The translations under genes and the position numbers were made by a program. A stretch of 32,000 nt of DNA, from the NCBI RefSeq assembly GCF_001272835.1, contig NZ_CP010546.1:60001-92000 (forward strand), in the 5' to 3' direction. This document shows positions 1,961 through 12,057 of this stretch, piece by piece; positions within the stretch are counted from its first letter, which is position 1; each line of letters starts with the position of its first letter. A model generated the notes under the pieces. That model did not search any database. It had not been told where the DNA came from and saw nothing but the letters and a program-made list of their open reading frames with translations. This stretch comes from Mycoplasmoides pneumoniae FH. GTDB lineage: Bacteria > Bacillota_I > Bacilli_A > Mycoplasmatales > Mycoplasmoidaceae.

Positions 1961-3477
<1,517 letters not shown>

Positions 3478-3487
<10 letters not shown>

Positions 3488-4632
3488 GGCAGATTGTACT
3501 TTCCGTTTCAGTTCGGCTTTTTAGTTAATTTCCAATTTAAAAGTCTGACAGCTTCCCGGGCAATGGCTGGTGCTGCAGTTAGCCCTGGGGATTTCATACC
3601 CCCTAAAATGACAAAGTCAGGGTCATTGTGAGCTATTCTAATAATAAAGTCATTAGTGGCTTTATCAATTGGACGCGAACCAGCAAAGCTTATTAAGGCA
3701 TTATTAATGTTTAGACTTGGCACCATATGTTTGCCAATCTTAGTCAACATACATGGAGCATCTTTGGTAATGTAACGAGTAGCTTCCTTGTCTACCCCAT
3801 CTAAAGCGGTGGGTCCGACTAAGAAGTTGCCATCTAACATGGGTGACACAATTACCCCTTTACCATGGATTGTTGGTACCATGAAAACCATTGAGTTTAA
3901 GTGGAGTTCGCCCTGATTAGTTACCACCACATACTGACCTCGACGGGTTGTTTGTTCAAAATCATCAGCTTTGGCTAAATGAGCTAAATAATCAGCATAA
4001 TGACCTGCAGCATCAATAATCTTCTTAACTTTAAAACTAGGAGTAGTTTCGTTGTTAGTTCAAACTAAATAAGTCCCATCAACTTGCTTACTAATATTAG
4101 TAACCTCAGTATTAGTGCAAATTTGTACTTTGTTTTGCTGTGCTGCTAAAGCTAAACATTTGCTCGCTAACACTGGATCAATTGCTCAGCTACCCTCGAC
4201 TTTTAATCCAGCCACAATTTCCGGATTAACGTAAGGCTCTAACTTTAAGGTTTCTTCTTTAGAGAGCATTTGAATATCTTCCAGATTAATTTGATTGGCA
4301 ATGCCTCTTTGCTTTAGTACTTCTAATTGTTCGCGCTCCATTTCATTGAAAGCCACAATTAAAGTACGGATCTTTTGCCTTGGAAAACCTAAGCGTTTAA
4401 AGTAGGTATTTAATCAGAGCTTTTTACCCAAAATGTTGTATTTAGCAGTTAACTTGTGTGGATTGGGATCAATGCCAGTGTGGATAACACCACTGTTGGC
4501 ATGGCTAGTCTCTTGTGCCAAATAATGGTGCTTTTCTACCAGTGTCACTTTGAGCTTGTACTGGCTCAATTCATAAGCAGTGGCACAGCCTATTACACCA
4601 CCGCCAACTATTAAAACATCTCTTGTTTCCAT
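3478..4632 (-). CDS. glpD: FAD-dependent glycerol-3-phosphate dehydrogenase/oxidase
   Basis: The N-terminus [23 protein letters not shown] carries the GxGxxG FAD fold. Track fragments 4414..4632 and 3508..3930 share one frame. TGA at 3508-3510 is read through to TAA at 3478-3480, giving 384 aa. The 3' end overlaps the glpK start by 10 nt. Confidence 0.92.
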
Positions 4633-4814: not shown

Positions 4815-6788
4815 ATGTTTGGAAAAGGGTTGGTCAAAAAAGGCCTTTTATTTTTTAGTGGCGTGAGTACTATGGCCGTCTTTTTAGTGTCTTGTGGTGC
4901 TACTAGAATTTGGGAATCTTCGATTCAACTGTTAGTTTCCAATGATGAAGCTACATTAGCTGACAAATCCTTTTCTGAGATGTCCTATGAAGGGATTAGA
5001 AGGTACTTTAGATCTCAAAAACATATTGAATTACCATCACCAAATAGTTCCCTGTTACAAGACGGCAACGGCCTTTGAAAACGTCCCGGACGTACTTTAA
5101 GTGATCGGATTGCTACCTTTAAAAACATTAAGAACGATGGTAGTGATGTGATTGTAGCTACTGGATTTAACCAACAAGAAGCACTACAAGCAATTAGCTC
5201 TGATGACCGTCGTTATTTAGCTGATAAAAACGACCTTGCTAAAGTTGGTTTCATTTTTGTCGATGGCCAAATTGAAAAGGAATATAACGTGATTAATAAA
5301 ACGCCACAATTTAGATCAACCCCACTAAACATTTCATCCGTTGCCTTCCGCAGTGATGATGGTTCCTTCTTAACTGGAGTAGCAACTGCAGTTTATTTGA
5401 ATTTAAATCAAGATTACTTTTTAAAGAAGAATGGAGCAACCAATAATAGTAGCCAAGATTTAACCGTTTCTGGTTTTGTCGGTGTTCCTATTCCTTCAAC
5501 CCTTTCTTTTTTAAACGGTTTCCGTTTGGGCATTGCTTATTTTAATGAGGTGATTTACACCCATTTAAGTGATGCTGAAACAACATCTGATAACAAGAGT
5601 AATTCTTCAAGTGCTAGCAACTCTGTTTTAGTGCAACTTAAACAGATGCAAGGAAACGACAAAAAGATTAAAAAGATTAAATGGATATCTCCTAAACAAG
5701 GAAGCGATAATAATTCGAACCTCAGTATCGATGATCACAAGTCTGGTTCTTTCTCCAGCACTGAACCACGAGCAACAACTATCATTAATAATCTTTTAGA
5801 CAAGGGTGTGAGTGCCATTATTCCTGTTGCCGGACCGCAAGTAAACTTAGCAGTTAACGAGGTGGCACGTCGCAAAGCGCACACTGCTATTATTGGTGTT
5901 GATAGTGCGCAAGAATTATTAGATATTAACCAAGATGCACCTGATAAAGATCAGTTAATCAAAGGTAATAAAAAAATTATTCCTTTCTCTTCTATTAAAG
6001 CCTTGGATGTTGCCATTGAAAACATGTTGATTGCCATTCAAAAAGGCAGTGATAATAATGGATATAAAGGATTTGGTTATAACAACATTGGTACGGTTGG
6101 AACTAGTTCAGTAGGTATTAGTGAGGCTGGTTATGAATTCTTAATTGATCCAGTTTTTTGAAAGACTACTCAGTCACAAGGGAAATCTATGGCCACAAAT
6201 ATGACTAATTTAAAACGTTTATCATCTGATGATACAAACACTAAGAAAGCATTAAAAGAGGTAAGCACCCATAAAAATGGTAGTGATAAAGATGGGATTA
6301 TTGGTAAATATTCCAATTTATTAACTAAAAAAAGCACAACAGTAACTGCTGTTGCTCAAAAATCTATGACAGACAATAATAGTGGAACTGAGCAAAAAAA
6401 GAATCTTTCTGAAGTAGATACTAAGAAGAAAGAGAAAGAAAGTAAAGGTAAAACTCAAAGTAATGGTCAGGACAGTGGCCAACAAAACGGAAAAGAAACA
6501 AACGATATTATTTCTAAGTATTCTAAGCTGTTAACTATGACAACTATGAACAATAAAGTAATGTCATCTAAAAAACAAAGTAGCGATGATAACAGTTTTA
6601 AAAAGACTTCAGAAAACGGAGACTGAGTAATTAAAGGAGACGAGTTAACTAAGAAAAAATCAACTGAGCTTCCTGCTTTTGCTAAAGGTGCAGATTACCC
6701 TACTTTCCCTACAGAAGCGGTAAGCGTTATTAACGGAAGTACCGCTTTAGACGGCAAAGGTTTTAAGTGGAGCTTTAAACAAATTTAA
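4815..6788 (+). CDS. Lipoprotein, BMP/PnrA-like ABC-transporter substrate-binding family, with low-complexity insertions and a C-terminal extension of about 200 aa
   Basis: The signal peptide with lipobox is MFGKGLVKKGLLFFSGVSTMAVFLVS-C. BMP-family-like blocks are present (VIVATGFNQ, IIPVAGPQ, IIGVDSAQ). Three track ORFs (4815, 5148, 6189) lie in frame 0 and are joined by TGA codons. The frame ends at TAA 6786-6788, giving 657 aa. Confidence 0.85.
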
Positions 6789-6805
6789 AATAATACTCGG
6801 CTGAT

Positions 6806-7072
6806 ATGAAGAAGATTCAAGTAGTCGTTAAAGACCCTGTGGGCATTCACGCCCGTCCTGCTAGTATTATTGCTGGTGAGGCTAATAAATTTAAATCGGA
6901 ATTAAAGCTAGTATCACCAAGCGGCGTTGAAGGTAACATCAAGTCGATCATAAACTTAATGTCTTTAGGCATTAAGCAAAACGACCACATTACCATCAAG
7001 GCAGAAGGAACTGATGAAGAAGAGGCACTAAATGCTATTAAAGCAGTTTTAGAAAAACACCAAGTTATTTAA
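6806..7072 (+). CDS. ptsH: Phosphocarrier protein HPr of the PTS
   Basis: The protein is 88 aa. It has the active-site His context VGIHARPAS and the regulatory Ser region KSIINLMSLG. Confidence 0.95.
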   Translation: MKKIQVVVKDPVGIHARPASIIAGEANKFKSELKLVSPSGVEGNIKSIINLMSLGIKQNDHITIKAEGTDEEEALNAIKAVLEKHQVI

Positions 7073-7095
7073 GTAATTTAATTTAACTTAGAATA

Positions 7096-7140
7096 AAAGC
7101 AACAAGCCAATCCCCAAGGAAAAGCTTGTTGCTTTTTTAT
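7096..7140 (+). terminator. Rho-independent terminator after ptsH
   Basis: A perfect 10-bp stem, agcaacaagc (7098-7107) / gcttgttgct (7124-7133), is followed by the T-run tttttatt. Confidence 0.75.
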
Positions 7141-7148
7141 TAAGAAAT

Positions 7149-7376
7149 ATGCTTTACTACGACGACGAGGATGAATATGACACTTCTAATTCTGGTGGTG
7201 TCGTAGATTTAGCATTTTTAGCACTAATAGTAGTTTTTCTATTTACCGCTTTTATTTCTTGGTTTGGGGCATGAACTTGCTACAAAACAAGGCGTTTTTG
7301 AAAGGTAATTAATAAACCCATTAATGTAATAGCAACAGCTTTCTTTAATTTGGGGAACCTTACTTTTTCTTTGTAG
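7149..7376 (+). CDS. Candidate small membrane protein (75 aa)
   Basis: The ORF runs from ATG 7149 to TAG 7374-7376 with 2 in-frame TGA: MLYYDDEDEYDTSNSGGVVDLAFLALIVVFLFTAFISWFGAWTCYKTRRFWKVINKPINVIATAFFNLGNLTFSL. It has an acidic N-terminus followed by one clear TM helix. Confidence 0.4.
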
Positions 7377-7515
7377 CATTAACTTTTCTACTAGGAAATA
7401 TACAAGCATTTACTCATGCTAATTAAGTAGTAGCACAGAACTTCAGGGAATAGCAATTAATATTGCCTTAATTGTTGGCATCATTAATTTACCTTTATTT
7501 ATATTCTTCCGAATA

Positions 7516-7767
7516 ATGCTGAAAAGTACTCATAATTTCTTAGACAAAAACATTCCACTACGAAAGAAATGAATTGAAGAAAAGATTGCTAGTGATGAAT
7601 TGGAAGGATGAGAATACACCCAAATTTATCCTTTCCTAAGAAAGCTTTCTAGAAGAAAGCGTTACCATTTTCTAAGAGCCTTAGAAAATGGTGATAAACC
7701 AACTTCTGTTTTAACAGATAGAGAAAATCAATTGTCTGAAAATCAAATAAGTCAAGCACATGCTTAG
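7516..7767 (+). CDS. Candidate small protein (83 aa from ATG 7516). The frame is open from 7423 and includes a possible TM segment upstream of the ATG.
   Basis: The translation is MLKSTHNFLDKNIPLRKKWIEEKIASDELEGWEYTQIYPFLRKLSRRKRYHFLRALENGDKPTSVLTDRENQLSENQISQAHA, with 2 TGA-Trp codons and a TAG stop at 7765-7767. A terminator-like hairpin follows. The start codon is uncertain. Confidence 0.45.
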
Positions 7768-7776
7768 TAAATAGAC

Positions 7777-7815
7777 ACTTAGCAAATTTATGTTTGCAAG
7801 TCTTTTTAATTTTTT
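7777..7815 (+). terminator. Candidate rho-independent terminator
   Basis: The hairpin is acttagcaaa / tttatg / tttgcaagt (9 bp with one bulge), followed by ctttttaatttttt. Confidence 0.5.
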
Positions 7816-8597
7816 AGCATCAAATTCGTCAATAAACTCTCTAATTTTTACCTAAAAATTCCTTATTTATTTCCTTATATTTTTATTTAAGAATAATCTT
7901 TTTTATTTCTCAAAATTTCCTTGATTTTATCCAAAATTTCCAATTTTATTTCTGGGAATTTTTACTTGTTTTATCTAAAAAATTACACCTTTCTTTTTTA
8001 GTGTTTCTCAAATATTTCTCTAAGAATGAGATTTTTATTCTTTGGTATTTCCACGTTATTTATCGAAATAATCTCTTTTTATTTCTAGAAAATTACTTTG
8101 ATTTTTGTCTAAGGATTCTCAACTTAGTCCCTAAATTTTCTCCGCTTTTTAGCGAAGAATATTTCAATTTATTCTTTGATTTTTATCTAAAAACTATCCC
8201 CTTAGTTACTTTAAATTTCTGTTAAATTTGTTTAGGGACTCTCATTTGTTTCTAAAAAACTTTTCCTTTTTCTTTCCAAAAGATTACAGTTTTTATTCTT
8301 AGAAACTTATCCGCCGTTTATCACAATATCTTTTTATCAAAACTTCTCCTTTTTATTCTTTAGGTTCCTCCTTTAATTTATCGAAATTTTCCATTTTTTC
8401 TTTTCTGGAATGTTTTTCTTTTTATAGCTAACTTAGTCTTTGAAATTTCTCTTTTTTATGTTCGAAGATTACGAATTGATAGACAAGAAATTGAAGATTT
8501 TTCAATTTTTCAAGCCTCCTTTTTCCAAAAAAACAGAATTGGTGAAGTTACTTTTTTAATTTTGTTCTAAAAGTAGCTTCGTTACCTTTCTAATTTA
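7816..8597 (+). repeat. Left array of degenerate T-rich direct repeats of about 20-25 bp (approximate consensus TTTTTATCYAAAAATTYCC)
   Basis: Example units are tttttacctaaaaattcc (7845-7862), ttttatccaaaatttcc (7925-7941) and ttttatctaaaaaattacacc (7969-7989). I count about 30 units by eye, all in one orientation. GC is about 25 percent. No credible ORF is present. Confidence 0.7.
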
Positions 8598-9310
8598 ATG
8601 AAGATTAAATATTTCTTTATTCCCTTGTTTTCTTCAGTTATATTATTTAGTGCCTGTTCTTCTATTCAGTCTGATCTTAGGAATCTTATTAAAGAAACAA
8701 CTGGCAAAGATTTTGACGTATCTAAATTAATTAAAACCTCTGAAGGAAGAAAAAACTTAATAAATTCTCTCAAAAAGTCTTACGAATCTAAGCCCGATGA
8801 AACAGCTAGCTTATTACTAATTGCTTGAAAGCAAAGTGCAGAAATGGGCGAAATAGGTTTTGATGATATTAAAGAAGGAGGAATTTATACCAGAGACAAT
8901 GATCCTTTCAAATTGGAACAAAAGGTTGAGTACTTCAATATGGAATACAAAATTTTAGTGATGTTTTAATTAAAGCTAAATTGATCTATATCTTTAAATG
9001 GCATGGCGATCATTCTTCTTCAGAAGGCTTAACTGCTAAAAATGGCGGCAAGCATCATTTCGATCTTTTTCTTAATCTTAAATCCTCTTCAAAAAAACCA
9101 TTTAATTCAAAAAGTTTTGATACAAAATCGGGAGAAGTTTTTCAAACGGAATGAATTAGTTTCCATACTTTAGTTAGTTGATCATTAAAAGGTAAAGATG
9201 AAAAAAGTCAAAAAAATCTTGACAAAATTATCATTAGCGAGTTTGTTACTAAAAAAGACCATGAACATGATTTTAATCTCTTTATATATTTAAACTATTC
9301 AATTAAGTAA
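8598..9310 (+). pseudogene. Frameshifted lipoprotein gene (about 237 aa if repaired)
   Basis: The signal peptide with lipobox is [20 protein letters not shown]. Frame 0 ends at TAA 8967-8969. Protein-like coding continues in frame 2 (open from 8873) to TAA 9308-9310: ...IKAKLIYIFKWHGDHSSSEGLTAKNGGKHHFDLFLNLKSSSKKPFNSKSFDTKSGEVFQTEWISFHTLVSWSLKGKDEKSQKNLDKIIISEFVTKKDHEHDFNLFIYLNYSIK. The frame change must lie in 8873-8969, probably at the A4T4 run near 8948-8956. Confidence 0.65.
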
Positions 9311-10200
9311 GCTCTCTAGATTATTTAGTTTTGATTTGCTAAAAATTCAAGTACTTTACTTTCAGTTCAGTCTTTAAAGTTAGCTATTTTTTAGATCAAA
9401 GATTAAATTTATTGGATTTCTATCAAAAAATTCCTCTTTTTACTCTTTGAATTTTCTCTGTTTTTTATCCAAGAATTACACCCTGATTCCATTAAAAGTT
9501 TTTGATTTTTACCAAAAAATTTCATTTTTTATTTCTTAAATTTACCTTTCTTTTTACCTAGGCATTACCCCCTTATTAGCAGAAGTTTCTACTTGCTTTA
9601 ACCAAAAGATTTCCTTTTTCTTCTTTAAAAATTCGCTTTACTTCGCCTAATATTTACCCTTTTTTATTGAAAAAATTCCCTGATTTTAGCCAAAAGATAG
9701 CTTTTTCTTTGTCTAAACTTTTAGCTCTTTTTTTACCCAAAAATTTCCTTTTTGCTTTTTTCTCCAAAATTTCTCTTTTTTTGAATTAGAAGAATGCACT
9801 TTTTTATTCAGAAGTTTTCTGCCTTTTGTCTTTTAAATAATTTCTTAATTTTTATCGCAAAACTCTCTGTTTTGTTTCCTGATAAATTCTTAGTTTTTAT
9901 CTAAAAGTTTCCACTTTCTCTTTTAAGAATTTCTCTACTTTTTATCAAGAAAGTTTCTTTCTCTTGTTTTTCTCTAAAAATTCCACTTCTTATTCCACTT
10001 ATTTTCAGTTTTAATTTCTCCTTTTATTTTTGAAATAATTTCCTTCTTTTATCAAGTTCTTAACCTTGTTCTTATTTGTTAATTCCCCTTCTTTTAGCCT
10101 ACAACTTCTCTTTTTTCTTGTTAAAAGATTCCCTTTCTTTTTATCAAGAAAATCTCTTTTTTTATGTCTTAAAAGTGGTCTTTATTTTGGTTCAAAATTT
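9311..10200 (+). repeat. Right array of the same degenerate T-rich direct-repeat family, same orientation as the left array
   Basis: Example units are tttttaccaaaaaatttca (9506-9524), tttttttacccaaaaatttcc (9728-9748), tttttatctaaaagtttcc (9894-9912), tttttatcaagaaagtttc (9939-9957) and tttttatcaagaaaatctc (10138-10156). I count about 35 units by eye. The motif aattacacc is shared with the left array (7981-7989 and 9474-9482). Confidence 0.7.
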
Positions 10201-10345
10201 AGTCCAAAAACAGTCAAATTTTTAGCACAAATTTAACTGCAAAAACTGTTCAAAAAATCTCACAAAATTGCAATCATTTTTTTGCAAGAAAATTTATCCC
10301 AGTTTTAGGGGGCAAGCGGGGTCAAAAATTGCTACAATAAATACC
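10190..10345 (+). promoter_or_regulatory. Putative potA promoter region: phased A-tracts, a GC-rich island and a TACAAT -10 box
   Basis: A-tracts recur about every 11-12 bp from about 10193 to 10290 (caaaattt, ccaaaaac, caaattttt, caaattt, gcaaaaac, caaaaaat, caaaatt, attttttt, gaaaattt). The island agggggcaagcggggtc follows. TACAAT lies at 10333-10338, 37 nt upstream of the TTG start at 10375. Confidence 0.35.
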
Positions 10346-10374
10346 GTTTTTTCTTTAAAAATTAAGTAGTTAAA

Positions 10375-12057
10375 TTGAACGAACGTTTTTTAATTGAAAT
10401 CGAAGGTTTAAACAAAACTTTCGATGATGGTTTTGTATCAGTACGTGATATTAACCTCAAAATTAAGAAGGGCGAATTTATTACGATTCTCGGTCCTTCT
10501 GGTTGTGGCAAAACAACTACTCTTAGGTTGTTAGCAGGTTTTGAAGATCCTACTTATGGCAAGATCAAAGTTAATGGTCTTGACATTAAAGACTTGCCCA
10601 TTCATAAGCGTCCCTTTGCTACTGTCTTCCAAGACTATGCCTTGTTTTCACACTTAACTGTGTACAAGAACATTGCTTATGGCTTGAAGGCAATGTACAC
10701 AAAGCTGGATCCGATTGATAAGCTAGTGGAACAATACCACCAAAGCTTACTGGACAAGCAACACCGCTTGCACAAGAGGATTGAACGCTTAGAAAAAAGT
10801 AATGCTAATCCACAACTGTTAGAACAACTTAAACAAACGGTTGTCGTTCAACAAAAACAGTTTAAACAACAAACAGAGACTTTTAAACAAAAGGAAAATG
10901 CTCGACGTGATGCCATTCAACAACGCTTGGTGCAACTTACCAAGGAATGGGAAAGCTTATCAAAGCAGAAGTTGCAACAATTAGAAGCGGAGAAAAAGTT
11001 GTTAGATAAAAAGTTTGAACAAACTGAGCGCAAATACCAAAAGGATGCTTGGATGGCAACCCACAGTGAAATGCGTTTAAAGCAGTTCAAACAAGAGGTG
11101 TTAGCTTTAAAACAACTAATTAAAACTAAGTTCAAACAAAATGAACCAGTTGACAAGTTGCAGTTAAAGCTGCAAACCTTAAAGCAAAAGTATGCTGCTA
11201 AAAGACAAATTGATAAGGAATACGATAAGTTGGTCTTAGCCTACAACAAGAAGGACTATTGAACTTCATACTGGGAAACCTATTCTTTACAACAACAAGA
11301 AGCCTTTGAAAAGCGTTACTTATCGCGCAAACTCACTAAACAAGAACAACACCAAAAGGTGTGTGCTGTAATTGAGTTAGTTGGTTTAAAGGGTAACGAG
11401 GACAAACTCCCAGAAGAATTGTCTGGGGGAATGAAGCAACGGGTAGCCTTAGCGCGTTCCTTGGTAATTGAACCAGACATTCTCTTATTGGATGAACCCT
11501 TGTCTGCTTTAGATGCTAAGGTACGTAAAAACTTGCAAAAGGAATTGCAAAAGATTCACCAACAAAGTGGTTTAACCTTTATCTTAGTTACTCACGACCA
11601 GGAAGAAGCCTTGGTCTTGTCCAACCGCATTGTGGTAATGAATGAGGGTAACATTCTCCAAGTTGGTAGTCCGGCTGATATTTACGATTCACCCAAAACC
11701 GAGTGGATTGCTAACTTCATTGGTCAAGCCAATATCTTTAAGGGTACTTACCTAGGTGACCTTAAGATTAAACTGCACAGCGGTGAAGTGATTAAAACTG
11801 ATGTGGACAATAACTATGTGGTTGGTAAGGAATACAAAATCCTAATTCGTCCCGAAGACTTTGACATTGTGCCCAAAAACAAAGGCTTCTTTAATGTTCG
11901 GGTAATTGATAAAACCTACAAAGGATTACTCTGAAAGATTACTACTAAGTTAGTTGATGACACCATAGTAGATCTAGAGAGTGTCAACGACATTGAGGTT
12001 GACAAAACCTTTGGGGTCACCTTTGATCCGATTGATGTTCACCTAATGGAGGTATAG
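10375..12057 (+). CDS. potA: Spermidine/putrescine-type ABC transporter ATP-binding protein with a large internal coiled-coil insertion
   Basis: The start is TTG at 10375; a TAA at 10363-10365 closes the frame upstream. Motifs present are Walker [11 protein letters not shown]-loop VFQDYALF, signature LSGGMKQR and Walker [12 protein letters not shown]. Track ORFs 10375..11262 and 11359..11934 are joined through TGA codons. The stop is TAG at 12055-12057, giving 560 aa. Confidence 0.92.

Follow-up and report, generated by a model that had tools for sequence, protein, structure and literature searches.

Two degenerate ~22-bp repeat arrays around a frameshifted lipoprotein gene in the ptsH–potA interval of Mycoplasma pneumoniae

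The ptsH–potA interval of Mycoplasma pneumoniae contains two degenerate arrays of a ~22-bp repeat, which lie on both sides of MPN054, a frameshifted lipoprotein gene of the PF00938 family. The two arrays are probably what is left of a single old AT-rich minisatellite located in an M. pneumoniae-specific gene-decay island. The island also holds the dead lipoprotein gene itself and decayed orphan small ORFs. The spacer accounts for ~0.4% of the genome of a species that serves whole-cell modelling and chassis engineering as the reference "minimal" bacterium. Positions refer to the window, i.e., the whole analysed stretch of 32,000 nucleotides, unless M129 coordinates are indicated; on the ptsH side of a 13-bp strain-specific indel at 7425, which lies within the small-ORF region and separates strains, M129 coordinates were converted as genome − 60014. 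The features of the interval are listed in Table 1.

Table 1. Features of the ptsH–potA interval (window positions)
Feature	Position	Strand	Evidence
ptsH terminator region; the read-through/orphan transcript ncMPN399 starts here	7088..7147	+	published TTS37, TSS00857
Decayed orphan small-ORF region: orf75 (7149–7376), orf83 (7516–7767)	7149..7767	+	code-4 ORFs
Array 1, ~28 slots of the degenerate 22-bp unit, + strand T-rich	7816..8470	+	autocorrelation, PWM, tiling
Lipoprotein cassette, promoter-proximal part, common to paralogues	8495..8597	+	identity to the upstream region of MPN411
Frameshifted MPN054, PF00938 family	8598..9310	+	translation, Pfam
Array 2, ~36 slots of the 22-bp unit of array 1	9380..10230	+	TRF, autocorrelation, PWM, tiling
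potA promoter region, kept in M. genitalium	10264..10374	+	74% identity upstream of M. genitalium potA

Translation with code 4 reveals no intact gene between orf83 and potA, in agreement with the sequence-only reading, which had noted 2.6 kb of DNA without one and had correctly taken the DNA for that of M. pneumoniae. The GC content of the island is 25–31%, compared with ~39% for the whole window. That reading had also placed two co-oriented arrays at 7816–8597 and 9311–10200. The arrays and their common orientation were found, but not these limits: the repeat-like sequence stops at ~8470 and resumes at ~9380, and between these points are the lipoprotein cassette and the promoter region that belongs to it. 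At the ptsH end, TTS37 and TSS00857 correspond to M129 positions 67102–67161 and 67105–67125 in the published data. At the other end, the −10 hexamer of potA (TACAAT) occupies positions 10333–10338, and the published TATA64 and TSS00051 of the potA promoter map to window positions 10330–10353.

The base composition of array 1 (7816–8597) is 27.5% A, 15.9% C, 8.7% G, and 48.0% T, and that of array 2 (9311–10200) is 25.1% A, 17.6% C, 7.9% G, and 49.4% T; the GC content estimated earlier by eye at about 25% is therefore accurate, with 36–41% in the flanking genes. Base autocorrelation was scored against 200 dinucleotide shuffles. In array 1, peaks were found at lags of 22 (z 4.3), 44 and 45 (z 4.1 and 4.0), and 89 (z 3.7), and in array 2 at lags of 45 (z 6.8), 22/23 (z 6.6 and 6.5), and 89/90 (z 4.5 and 4.7). 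The periods of 22, 44–45, and 89–90 bp are thus far above the shuffles, as expected for the repeats reported in the sequence-only reading. Peaks of this type are absent from the MPN054 pseudogene, and potA exhibits codon periodicity only. TRF indicated an 89-bp period at 9415–9577 and periods of 21 and 26 bp elsewhere. The unit consensus obtained with an iterated PWM is ATTTTTATCTAAAAATTTTCTT (10 bits), and the 22-bp unit can also be written as wTTTTTATCyAAAAATTTyC. In the whole 32 kb, 41 matches of at least 12 bits are located on the + strand, all of them in or beside the arrays, and two on the − strand; the M. pirum locus (20% GC, 21.5 kb) contains only 7 and 10 PWM matches. Tiling gives 28 + 36 = 64 slots (53 score positive, 43 at least 5 bits), which fits the earlier count of about 60–70 units, and the motif aattacacc is indeed common to both arrays, at 7981 and 9474.

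Units of array 1 share a mean identity of 0.47 with each other, those of array 2 one of 0.51, and units from different arrays one of 0.48, while composition alone gives 0.35. Since the identity within the arrays is about the same as between them, they apparently represent one family, heavily decayed and without recent homogenisation. Traces of higher-order structure can be noted as well: the best two 89-bp copies (9415–9501 and 9504–9585) share 74% matches, units at even separations are slightly more similar to each other, and TTATC-type units recur every 44–45 bp. The divergence of units is independent of the distance between them. The arrays thus combine the characters of a tandem repeat or minisatellite, namely head-to-tail units, a single orientation, periodicity above shuffles, and higher-order structure. 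A decaying satellite had been one of the earlier suggestions, and it is supported by unit identities of 47–51% against 35% that are equal within and between arrays, by the 44.5/89-bp traces, and by a copy number constant among strains. According to the proposed course of events, slippage or unequal recombination would have amplified a ~22-bp T5/A5 unit head-to-tail, in part as higher-order units of 44.5 and 89 bp; the amplification would then have ceased, and point mutation would have worn the copies down to ~50% identity. Such identity is too low for further slippage, so the array should now be stable in length. If the arrays are a fossil satellite, the island can safely serve as a landing pad and offers a candidate deletion for genome reduction; it is then also a rare datable trace of non-coding DNA arising and lingering in a shrinking genome.

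The comparison of strains and of M. genitalium, which had been put forward with the original observation, revealed no copy-number change and a much shorter spacer, respectively. In six strain sequences, which represent both indel types and both lineages, the array length is identical and two SNPs are located in the arrays. The assignment of the arrays to VNTRs was rejected because of this constant copy number. In M. genitalium, the spacer is 198 bp long and contains one good unit-like match; only its potA-proximal ~110 bp are orthologous, and the small-ORF region is missing. Since 198 bp are found here in M. genitalium, 3.3 kb are lineage-specific. An alignment of the middle of the M. genitalium spacer with the start of array 1 (67%) is not convincing in AT-rich DNA. 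At the potA loci of other Mycoplasmoides (M. testudinis, M. pirum, and one MAG), synteny is broken and the arrays are absent. A scan of genome contigs for sister arrays gave, among the matches listed, which came from genomes other than that of M. pneumoniae, chance pairs only, with at most 4 PWM matches per kb; the peak of array 2 is ~25–30 per kb (a count of overlapping positions). No homologues of orf83 were found outside M. pneumoniae, Rfam gave one sub-threshold chance match, on the ptsH terminator, and no prior description of the repeat was found within the literature searched.

The N-terminal part of MPN054 is encoded at 8598–8969 and the C-terminal part at 8981–9310 in a different frame of translation, with the frameshift at ~8969. 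The product matches PF00938 (E = 1.4e-7) and has a signal peptide with a lipobox cysteine and full-length homology, as lipoproteins of this family do. Its paralogues (231–263 aa), present only in M. pneumoniae, are 45–59% identical to it over 89–100% of the joined frames, and their homology to MPN054 ends at the gene boundaries. Published data report a log2 expression of 1.39 for MPN054, no detected protein, and non-essentiality. Upstream, the region 8506–8546 is 80% identical to the upstream region of MPN411, and the motif CTTTTCCAAAAAAA(G)CAGAATTG is common to the promoter-proximal regions of three paralogues. The examined loci of the paralogous lipoproteins (MPN411 and others) are devoid of arrays. 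As for the earlier idea that the satellite expanded from the lipoprotein promoter, such a source is weakly suggested by the unit-like CTTTTCCAAAAAAA common to the paralogue promoters.

In culture, the arrays have no sequence-specific job: they are non-essential, near-silent on the repeat strand, free of mapped protein footprints, and poor in promoter hexamers. In the published Tn-seq data (PMC12494982), M129 positions 67046–70413 (3368 bp) are called non-essential as one segment, which received 3089 insertions in rich medium in vitro; the insertions persist across passages, inserts carrying promoters or terminators are tolerated at saturation without fitness cost, and all ncRNAs of the segment belong to class N. 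The sole + strand RNA touching an array, ncMPN400, has a published log2 value of 0.08, and weak antisense RNAs are located inside array 1 (ncMPN224) and array 2 (ncMPN387), with log2 values of 2.7 and 4.9 between them; the RNAs of the island thus range from 0.08 to 4.9, compared with 7–12 for the neighbouring genes. None of the published protein-occupancy sites begins inside the arrays. The sequence-only reading had named the absence of a phenotype and of distinct transcription or occupancy as arguments against a functional element, and the published Tn-seq, RNA, and occupancy data largely show just this. At most, the island would passively separate the potABCD promoter from the ptsH unit, which is strongly expressed. 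It had also been claimed that each unit contains a −10 box, from which an RNA polymerase sink or a source of pervasive transcription was envisaged. The units do hold one-off TAAAAT matches, and published lists contain 18 TATA-like boxes in the 3.4-kb segment, in addition to the two antisense RNAs. However, the + strands of arrays 1 and 2 contain no exact TANAAT, where shuffles predict 3.2 and 3.0 copies, and the − strand has only three; sigma-70-like sites are fewer than expected (5 vs. 13.9 ± 4.3), and the published TSS list contains no + strand start site inside array 1. The claim of a −10 box in each unit therefore fails. Given these depleted sites, the weak array RNAs, and the low expression of MPN054, a promoter array, polymerase sink, or source of pervasive transcription is extremely unlikely and can be considered largely refuted already.

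The spacing of the tracts is another feature of the arrays. The distance from T-tract to A-tract peaks at +9–10 (z 4.3–5.6) and that from A-tract to T-tract at +11–13 (z 3.9–4.7), which confirms the earlier remark that T/A tracts alternate about one helical turn apart (cross-correlation z 3.9–5.6 at 9–13 bp). Because of this spacing, moderate curvature and easy melting are predicted for the DNA. In a wedge model, which was checked against the A4T4/T4A4 benchmark only, the predicted curvature is 10.7 deg/turn in array 1 (z 3.7) and 11.6 in array 2 (z 5.7), with a window mean of 6.5. When the 32 kb are ranked in 300-bp windows by predicted curvature, the top 15 all fall within the arrays, and the predicted array values are higher than the maximum of each of five other mycoplasma loci. 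The phasing of the A/T tracts and a predicted curvature higher than in shuffles are the sequence characters of intrinsically curved DNA. Of the curved, nucleoid-protein-binding region suggested in the sequence-only reading, the curvature stands as a model prediction, the highest in the window and above shuffles, while the binding is not supported by the occupancy data mentioned above.

Possibly, the two blocks of ~0.7–0.85 kb, curved, easily melted, and poor in promoters, would form a DNA-encoded structural element, although we consider this unlikely. Such an element might be a topological barrier, a border of a chromosome-interaction domain (CID), or an insulator between ptsH and potABCD, and would act through polymer mechanics and not through a sequence-specific protein. 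Consistent with it are the predicted curvature, the tract phasing, the depletion of promoter hexamers, and a TADbit border between bins 23 and 24 (69,000 bp), which the merged data and replicates 1–3 all place between the arrays. However, the score of this border is 5 of 10, the lowest score class, and the chance of a bin boundary being a border is 43/272 = 0.16. Moreover, HpaII sites are absent from window position 5830 to 11671, and bin 23 has none at all; since the border lies inside a single 5.8-kb restriction fragment, an artefact is likely. Trussart et al. noted lower GC at domain borders and raised curvature as a possibility, but the GC association is weak (P = 0.088). Also against a structural element are the saturating transposon insertion tolerated at no fitness cost, the 198 bp that suffice in M. 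genitalium, and the fact that the curvature is a model prediction. It is improbable that the arrays would serve as a bacterial DNA-encoded mechanical or topological insulator that sets the CID border and decouples the ptsH and potABCD units. The ingredients of this idea are an old minisatellite, helically phased T/A tracts, purged promoter hexamers, and a cell nearly without nucleoid proteins. C. elegans minisatellites are reported to be DNA-encoded mechanical insulators (bioRxiv 10.64898/2026.08.08.743475), and the arrays resemble them and bacterial CID borders in helically phased tracts, low GC, and the coincidence with a called border. They differ from such domain-boundary DNA in that insertions are tolerated throughout their segment and in that the call of their border, which is not significant alone, is confounded by the depletion of restriction sites. 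If the arrays did shape local topology, they would show that DNA as such can encode chromosome domains where the cell has very few proteins that bind it, a question that comes from the published Hi-C study.

Several observations weigh against a fossil minisatellite. A genome under strong deletion pressure retains 1.5 kb of seemingly useless DNA, intact in every strain examined, and the SNP density of the island, ~1.2/kb, is not higher than the ~2.1/kb of the flanking genes, with counts too small for a test. The predicted curvature and the Hi-C border call should be added here; the depletion of promoter hexamers could reflect selection and not inheritance from the founder unit, and the non-essentiality comes from rich medium in vitro.

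Two other origins of the arrays were considered. It is quite improbable that the whole 3.3 kb is horizontally acquired DNA or the remnant of a lost mobile element, with the arrays as iteron- or centromere-like repeats. A direct-repeat spacing of ~22 bp is typical of iterons and some plasmid partition sites. In addition, the 3.3 kb are missing from M. genitalium, the GC content differs from that of the window, and the gene order upstream of potA is disrupted in other Mycoplasmoides, among which M. testudinis has transposase and integrase fragments there. However, low GC can also be produced by neutral decay under AT-biased mutation, the island has no replication, partition, integrase, or transposase gene and no rep-like or initiator ORF, BLAST of plasmid and phage collections gave no match to it, the lipoprotein family occurs in M. 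pneumoniae only, and orf83 is an orphan. Direct repeats about two helical turns apart are also seen in iterons and in clusters of DnaA boxes, as at plasmid origins, in E. coli datA, and in B. subtilis, and the A-type units (TTATCYAAA) differ from the DnaA box TTATCCACA at two positions. Such sets comprise 3–10 units, whereas ~64 units far exceed known iteron or parC/parS sets, and the island has no initiator gene. DnaA boxes are not enriched: within one mismatch, TTATCCACA occurs 9 times in the 32 kb vs. 9.4 expected, with one in the arrays, and the DnaA ChIP entries in the published supplement are at oriC. An array of IHF sites was not found either (WATCARNNNNTTR, 6 in the window vs. 4.6 expected, one in the arrays). 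Still less probable, and very unlikely, is an origin of the arrays from coding tandem repeats that once belonged to a surface protein gene. Tandem coding repeats are present in the variable surface lipoproteins of other mycoplasmas, the arrays adjoin a lipoprotein gene in the same orientation, and periods of 45 and 90 bp are divisible by three. However, the basic period is 22–23 bp, and the peaks at lags of 45 and 90 are matched in strength by those at 44 and 89. There are 7–24 stops per ~270 codons in all six frames, with TAA/TAG in the unit consensus, so the arrays were correctly judged non-coding before. With 48–49% T on the gene strand, the arrays do not resemble the coding DNA of mycoplasmas, the full-length paralogues have no repeat domain and are homologous to MPN054 only up to the gene boundaries, and no relative with an open frame across a homologous array was found.

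Among known repeats, the arrays are closest in kind to degenerate minisatellite or satellite DNA, with head-to-tail units in one direction, nested periods of 22, 44.5, and 89 bp, and divergence that does not depend on distance. They differ in being located in an 816-kb bacterial genome with a coding density of ~88%. The MLVA/VNTR loci of M. pneumoniae are also short tandem units in the same genome, but these markers vary in copy number among strains, while the arrays are constant and, at ~50% unit identity, far more decayed than typical VNTRs; the variable segments listed in PMC5391922 do not include them. RepMP elements are scattered through the genome as G+C-rich copies of segments of adhesin genes and are used for recombination, whereas the arrays are local, 25% GC, and without coding potential. 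The statement that they are not CRISPR repeats was also right, as the units abut without spacers and are ~50% identical, with no cas-like ORF in the window. Many eukaryotic satellites are AT-rich and curved, with phased A/T tracts (PMC8122249), which the arrays resemble, their curvature being predicted. Among the matches listed in a scan of metagenome contigs, a few clean T5/A5 arrays with the core TTTTTATCTAAAAATTCC were found in ORF-poor contigs, which are probably eukaryotic. Given that these arrays were picked by the query pattern and are probably eukaryotic, their likeness to those of M. pneumoniae can be explained by convergence and not by homology.

The window belongs to Mycoplasmoides pneumoniae; its PotA protein is 100% identical to that of the species. 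The gene order was read with the mycoplasma code. The ptsH–potA interval is 3.3 kb long and holds two arrays of a degenerate 22-bp unit on either side of a frameshifted lipoprotein gene. The arrays are a real, heavily decayed minisatellite inside a lineage-specific gene-decay island, and we consider it rather probable that they are a fossil without sequence-specific function.

Features of the ptsH–potA interval and its flanks, in window coordinates
Feature	Position	Strand	Remark
glpK	1961-3487	-	
glpD	3478-4632	-	
Bmp lipoprotein	4815-6788		
ptsH	6806-7072		
orf75, orf83 (small orphan ORFs)	7149-7376, 7516-7767		3' of ptsH
Array 1, T-rich	~7816-8470		5' of lipoprotein gene
MPN054 (lipoprotein gene)	8598-8969 + 8981-9310		frameshift-split, between arrays
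Array 2, T-rich	~9380-10230		3' of lipoprotein gene
potA promoter			after array 2, directly before potA
potA	10375-12057		then potB, potC, PotD-like lipoprotein

Each array has ~25% GC, with 48–49% T on the plus strand. At lags 22, 44–45 and 89–90, base autocorrelation lies above that of 200 dinucleotide-preserving shuffles (z up to 6.8); these peaks are absent in the pseudogene and potA. TRF detects an 89-bp period at 9415–9577 and shorter periods at other places. The 22-bp unit obtained from an iterated PWM is ATTTTTATCTAAAAATTTTCTT. At ≥12 bits, the whole 32 kb contains 41 plus-strand and 2 minus-strand matches, and all 41 lie within or beside the arrays. Composition by itself cannot account for the array matches, since the same PWM gives only 7 and 10 in an M. 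pirum locus of 21.5 kb and 20% GC. Tiling places 28 unit slots in array 1 and 36 in array 2. Thus, the periodicity, the common orientation and the count of about 60–70 units (64 slots) proposed by the sequence-only reading all stand. The better-matching "TTATC" units are spaced 44–45 bp apart and alternate with a "TTTCT" type; T-tracts are followed by A-tracts at +9–10 and A-tracts by T-tracts at +11–13 (z 3.9–5.6). A draft M. pneumoniae assembly (L013), whose strain has a SNP at 7912, has a contig end at window position 8048 inside array 1; the repeat can therefore defeat short-read assembly.

The two arrays are real, but shorter than first drawn: the remainder of the DNA attributed to them is lipoprotein cassette, in which similarity to paralogues spans ~8506–9350. 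MPN054 is in the PF00938 family, all detectable members of which are from M. pneumoniae. Arrays are absent from three paralogous lipoprotein loci, and the paralogue promoters have the unit-like CTTTTCCAAAAAAA in common. This sequence lends weak support to the earlier suggestion that the unit may derive from the lipoprotein promoter. At one paralogous locus (L008), two tandem MPN054-family genes (651–1358 and 1381–2077), the second seemingly split, lie beside the gyrB-gyrA-serS cluster.

Published data are in the coordinates of strain M129 (window = genome - 60027 downstream of a 13-bp indel). Miravet-Verde et al. 2025 (PMC12494982) mapped transposon insertions by Tn-seq at near-single-base resolution; in their map, 67046–70413 is one non-essential segment, with 3089 insertions in 3368 bp persisting over passages. 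MPN054 is of class N, with log2 expression of 1.39 and the protein absent. The ptsH terminator and the start site of the orphan-ORF transcript are at 67100–67161, and this transcript ends at 67798, just 5' of array 1. Both orphan ORFs (7149–7767) are transcribed as ncMPN399 (log2 6.5). No description of the repeat was found in the literature that could be searched; novelty is modest, since the region was already annotated as non-essential, un-annotated DNA.

A promoter array is disfavoured. The -10 box previously seen in each unit is exact in none: TANAAT occurs 0 times on the plus strand of each array versus 3.2 and 3.0 in shuffles (for each array, 0.03–0.04 of the shuffles have a count this low), and 2 and 1 times on the minus strand. 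Sigma-70-like sites in 6700–10500 number 5 versus 13.9 ± 4.3. The proposed RNA polymerase sink or source of pervasive transcription is not supported by the plus-strand TANAAT count or by RNA levels. Two RNAs are annotated within the arrays, both weak and antisense (ncMPN224, log2 4.9; ncMPN387, log2 2.7), and the sole plus-strand RNA touching an array, ncMPN400, has log2 0.08; neighbouring ptsH and potA reach 11.8 and 7.4. A coding repeat is disfavoured by stops closing all six frames across the arrays, and an iteron/DnaA region by a DnaA-box count at chance level. The IHF consensus shows no excess over chance, and Rfam, plasmid and phage searches gave no match. Nucleoid-protein binding was not borne out either, as no published occupancy site starts within the arrays: starts in the segment are only at 69254–69348 and 70330–70348, both outside the arrays as delimited here, with ~4.5 expected in 1.5 kb (genome density 2454 per 816 kb).

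The main rival, a passive structural or topological role of the arrays, appears unlikely to us. Curved DNA, as the sequence-only reading suggested, is indeed predicted. The Bolshoy–Trifonov wedge model, with literature parameters, reproduced the classic contrast between A4T4 (21.6 deg/turn, curved) and T4A4 (1.6, straight). With this model, the curvature of the arrays comes out at 10.7 and 11.6 deg/turn (window mean 6.5; z against shuffles 3.7 and 5.7), about half that of ideal phased A-tracts, a prediction and not a measurement. All of the top 15 curved 300-bp windows are predicted in the arrays, and none of five other mycoplasma loci reaches such predicted values even at its maximum. At a resolution of 3 kb, Trussart et al. 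2017 (PMC5344976) distinguished 44 interaction domains, with lower GC at borders (P = 0.088). In their TADbit output, bins 23 and 24 are separated by a border at 69,000 bp, which falls within MPN054, between the arrays. In the part of that output used here, the merged data and three replicates all show this border, with a score of 5/10 each time, the lowest class. The chance of a border at a given bin boundary is 43/272 = 0.16. CCGG (HpaII) is absent from 5830 to 11671, bin 23 being without any site; the border, like any HpaII-based Hi-C signal here, therefore rests on one 5.8-kb restriction fragment spanning the island. We treat the coincidence of border and arrays as a lead, not as evidence.

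Array length is identical in six M. pneumoniae sequences, including both forms of the 13-bp indel; their SNPs (2 in the arrays, 2 in the pseudogene, 9 in 4.3 kb upstream) are too few to judge constraint. The indel is at 7425, between orf75 and orf83, where reading frames resemble a broken larger gene. The 13-bp sequence, CAAACATCCTAAT, is present in L009 and L010 and absent from the window, L002 and L011–L013; judging from its coordinates, M129 has it as well. The indel probably belongs to the type-specific ones of 13–15 bp already published. In M. genitalium the flanking genes are the same, with a ptsH–potA gap of just 198 bp. The last ~110 bp of this gap are orthologous to window 10264–10374 (74%); the -10 region of potA lies there, as does one good unit-like match. 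The DNA upstream of potA is non-syntenic and array-free in M. testudinis, M. pirum and a related MAG. In M. testudinis (L003), this region carries Transposase_mut transposase and rve integrase fragments (2471–2713, 9083–9721) and helicase genes, mobile DNA by which synteny with ptsH is broken there.

Mean unit identity is 47% in array 1, 51% in array 2 and 48% between them (35% expected from composition). The arrays are thus one family without recent homogenisation, and copies too diverged for slippage fit their stable length. One 89-bp copy pair alone is still 74% alike. As to age and mode of origin, we infer from the decay level an old origin: provided that the copies were once near-identical, it suggests an age close to that of the M. 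genitalium split. Loss in M. genitalium would then be likelier than recent gain in M. pneumoniae.

Clean tandem arrays were found, among the matches listed, in ORF-poor metagenome contigs, probably eukaryotic: L214 (4927–5955), L138 (2452–2856), L215 (513–919) and L172 (154–399). The core of their units equals the M. pneumoniae consensus, as in TTTTTTATTTTTATCTAAAAATTCCACCTCTA (32.5 copies) and TTACCAAAAAATTTCGATTT (20 copies, with a 117-bp higher order). Since they were picked by a pattern derived from the M. pneumoniae unit, the likeness is likely convergence; T5/A5 satellites of ~20 bp recur.

No homologue of orf83 was found outside M. pneumoniae; orf75 has one predicted membrane helix and a weak sub-threshold MARVEL match. 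A sub-threshold Rfam match to Plastid-psbA-2 at 7089–7140 on the minus strand (26 bits, cut-off 56) was rejected as chance stem-loop similarity; the published hairpin of the ptsH terminator lies at the same place. PotA has a TTG start and 560 aa, including a ~200-residue K/Q/E-rich, coiled-coil-like insertion within the ABC ATPase domain; its relatives in Mycoplasmoides, Ureaplasma and Malacoplasma are likewise 450–607 aa long.
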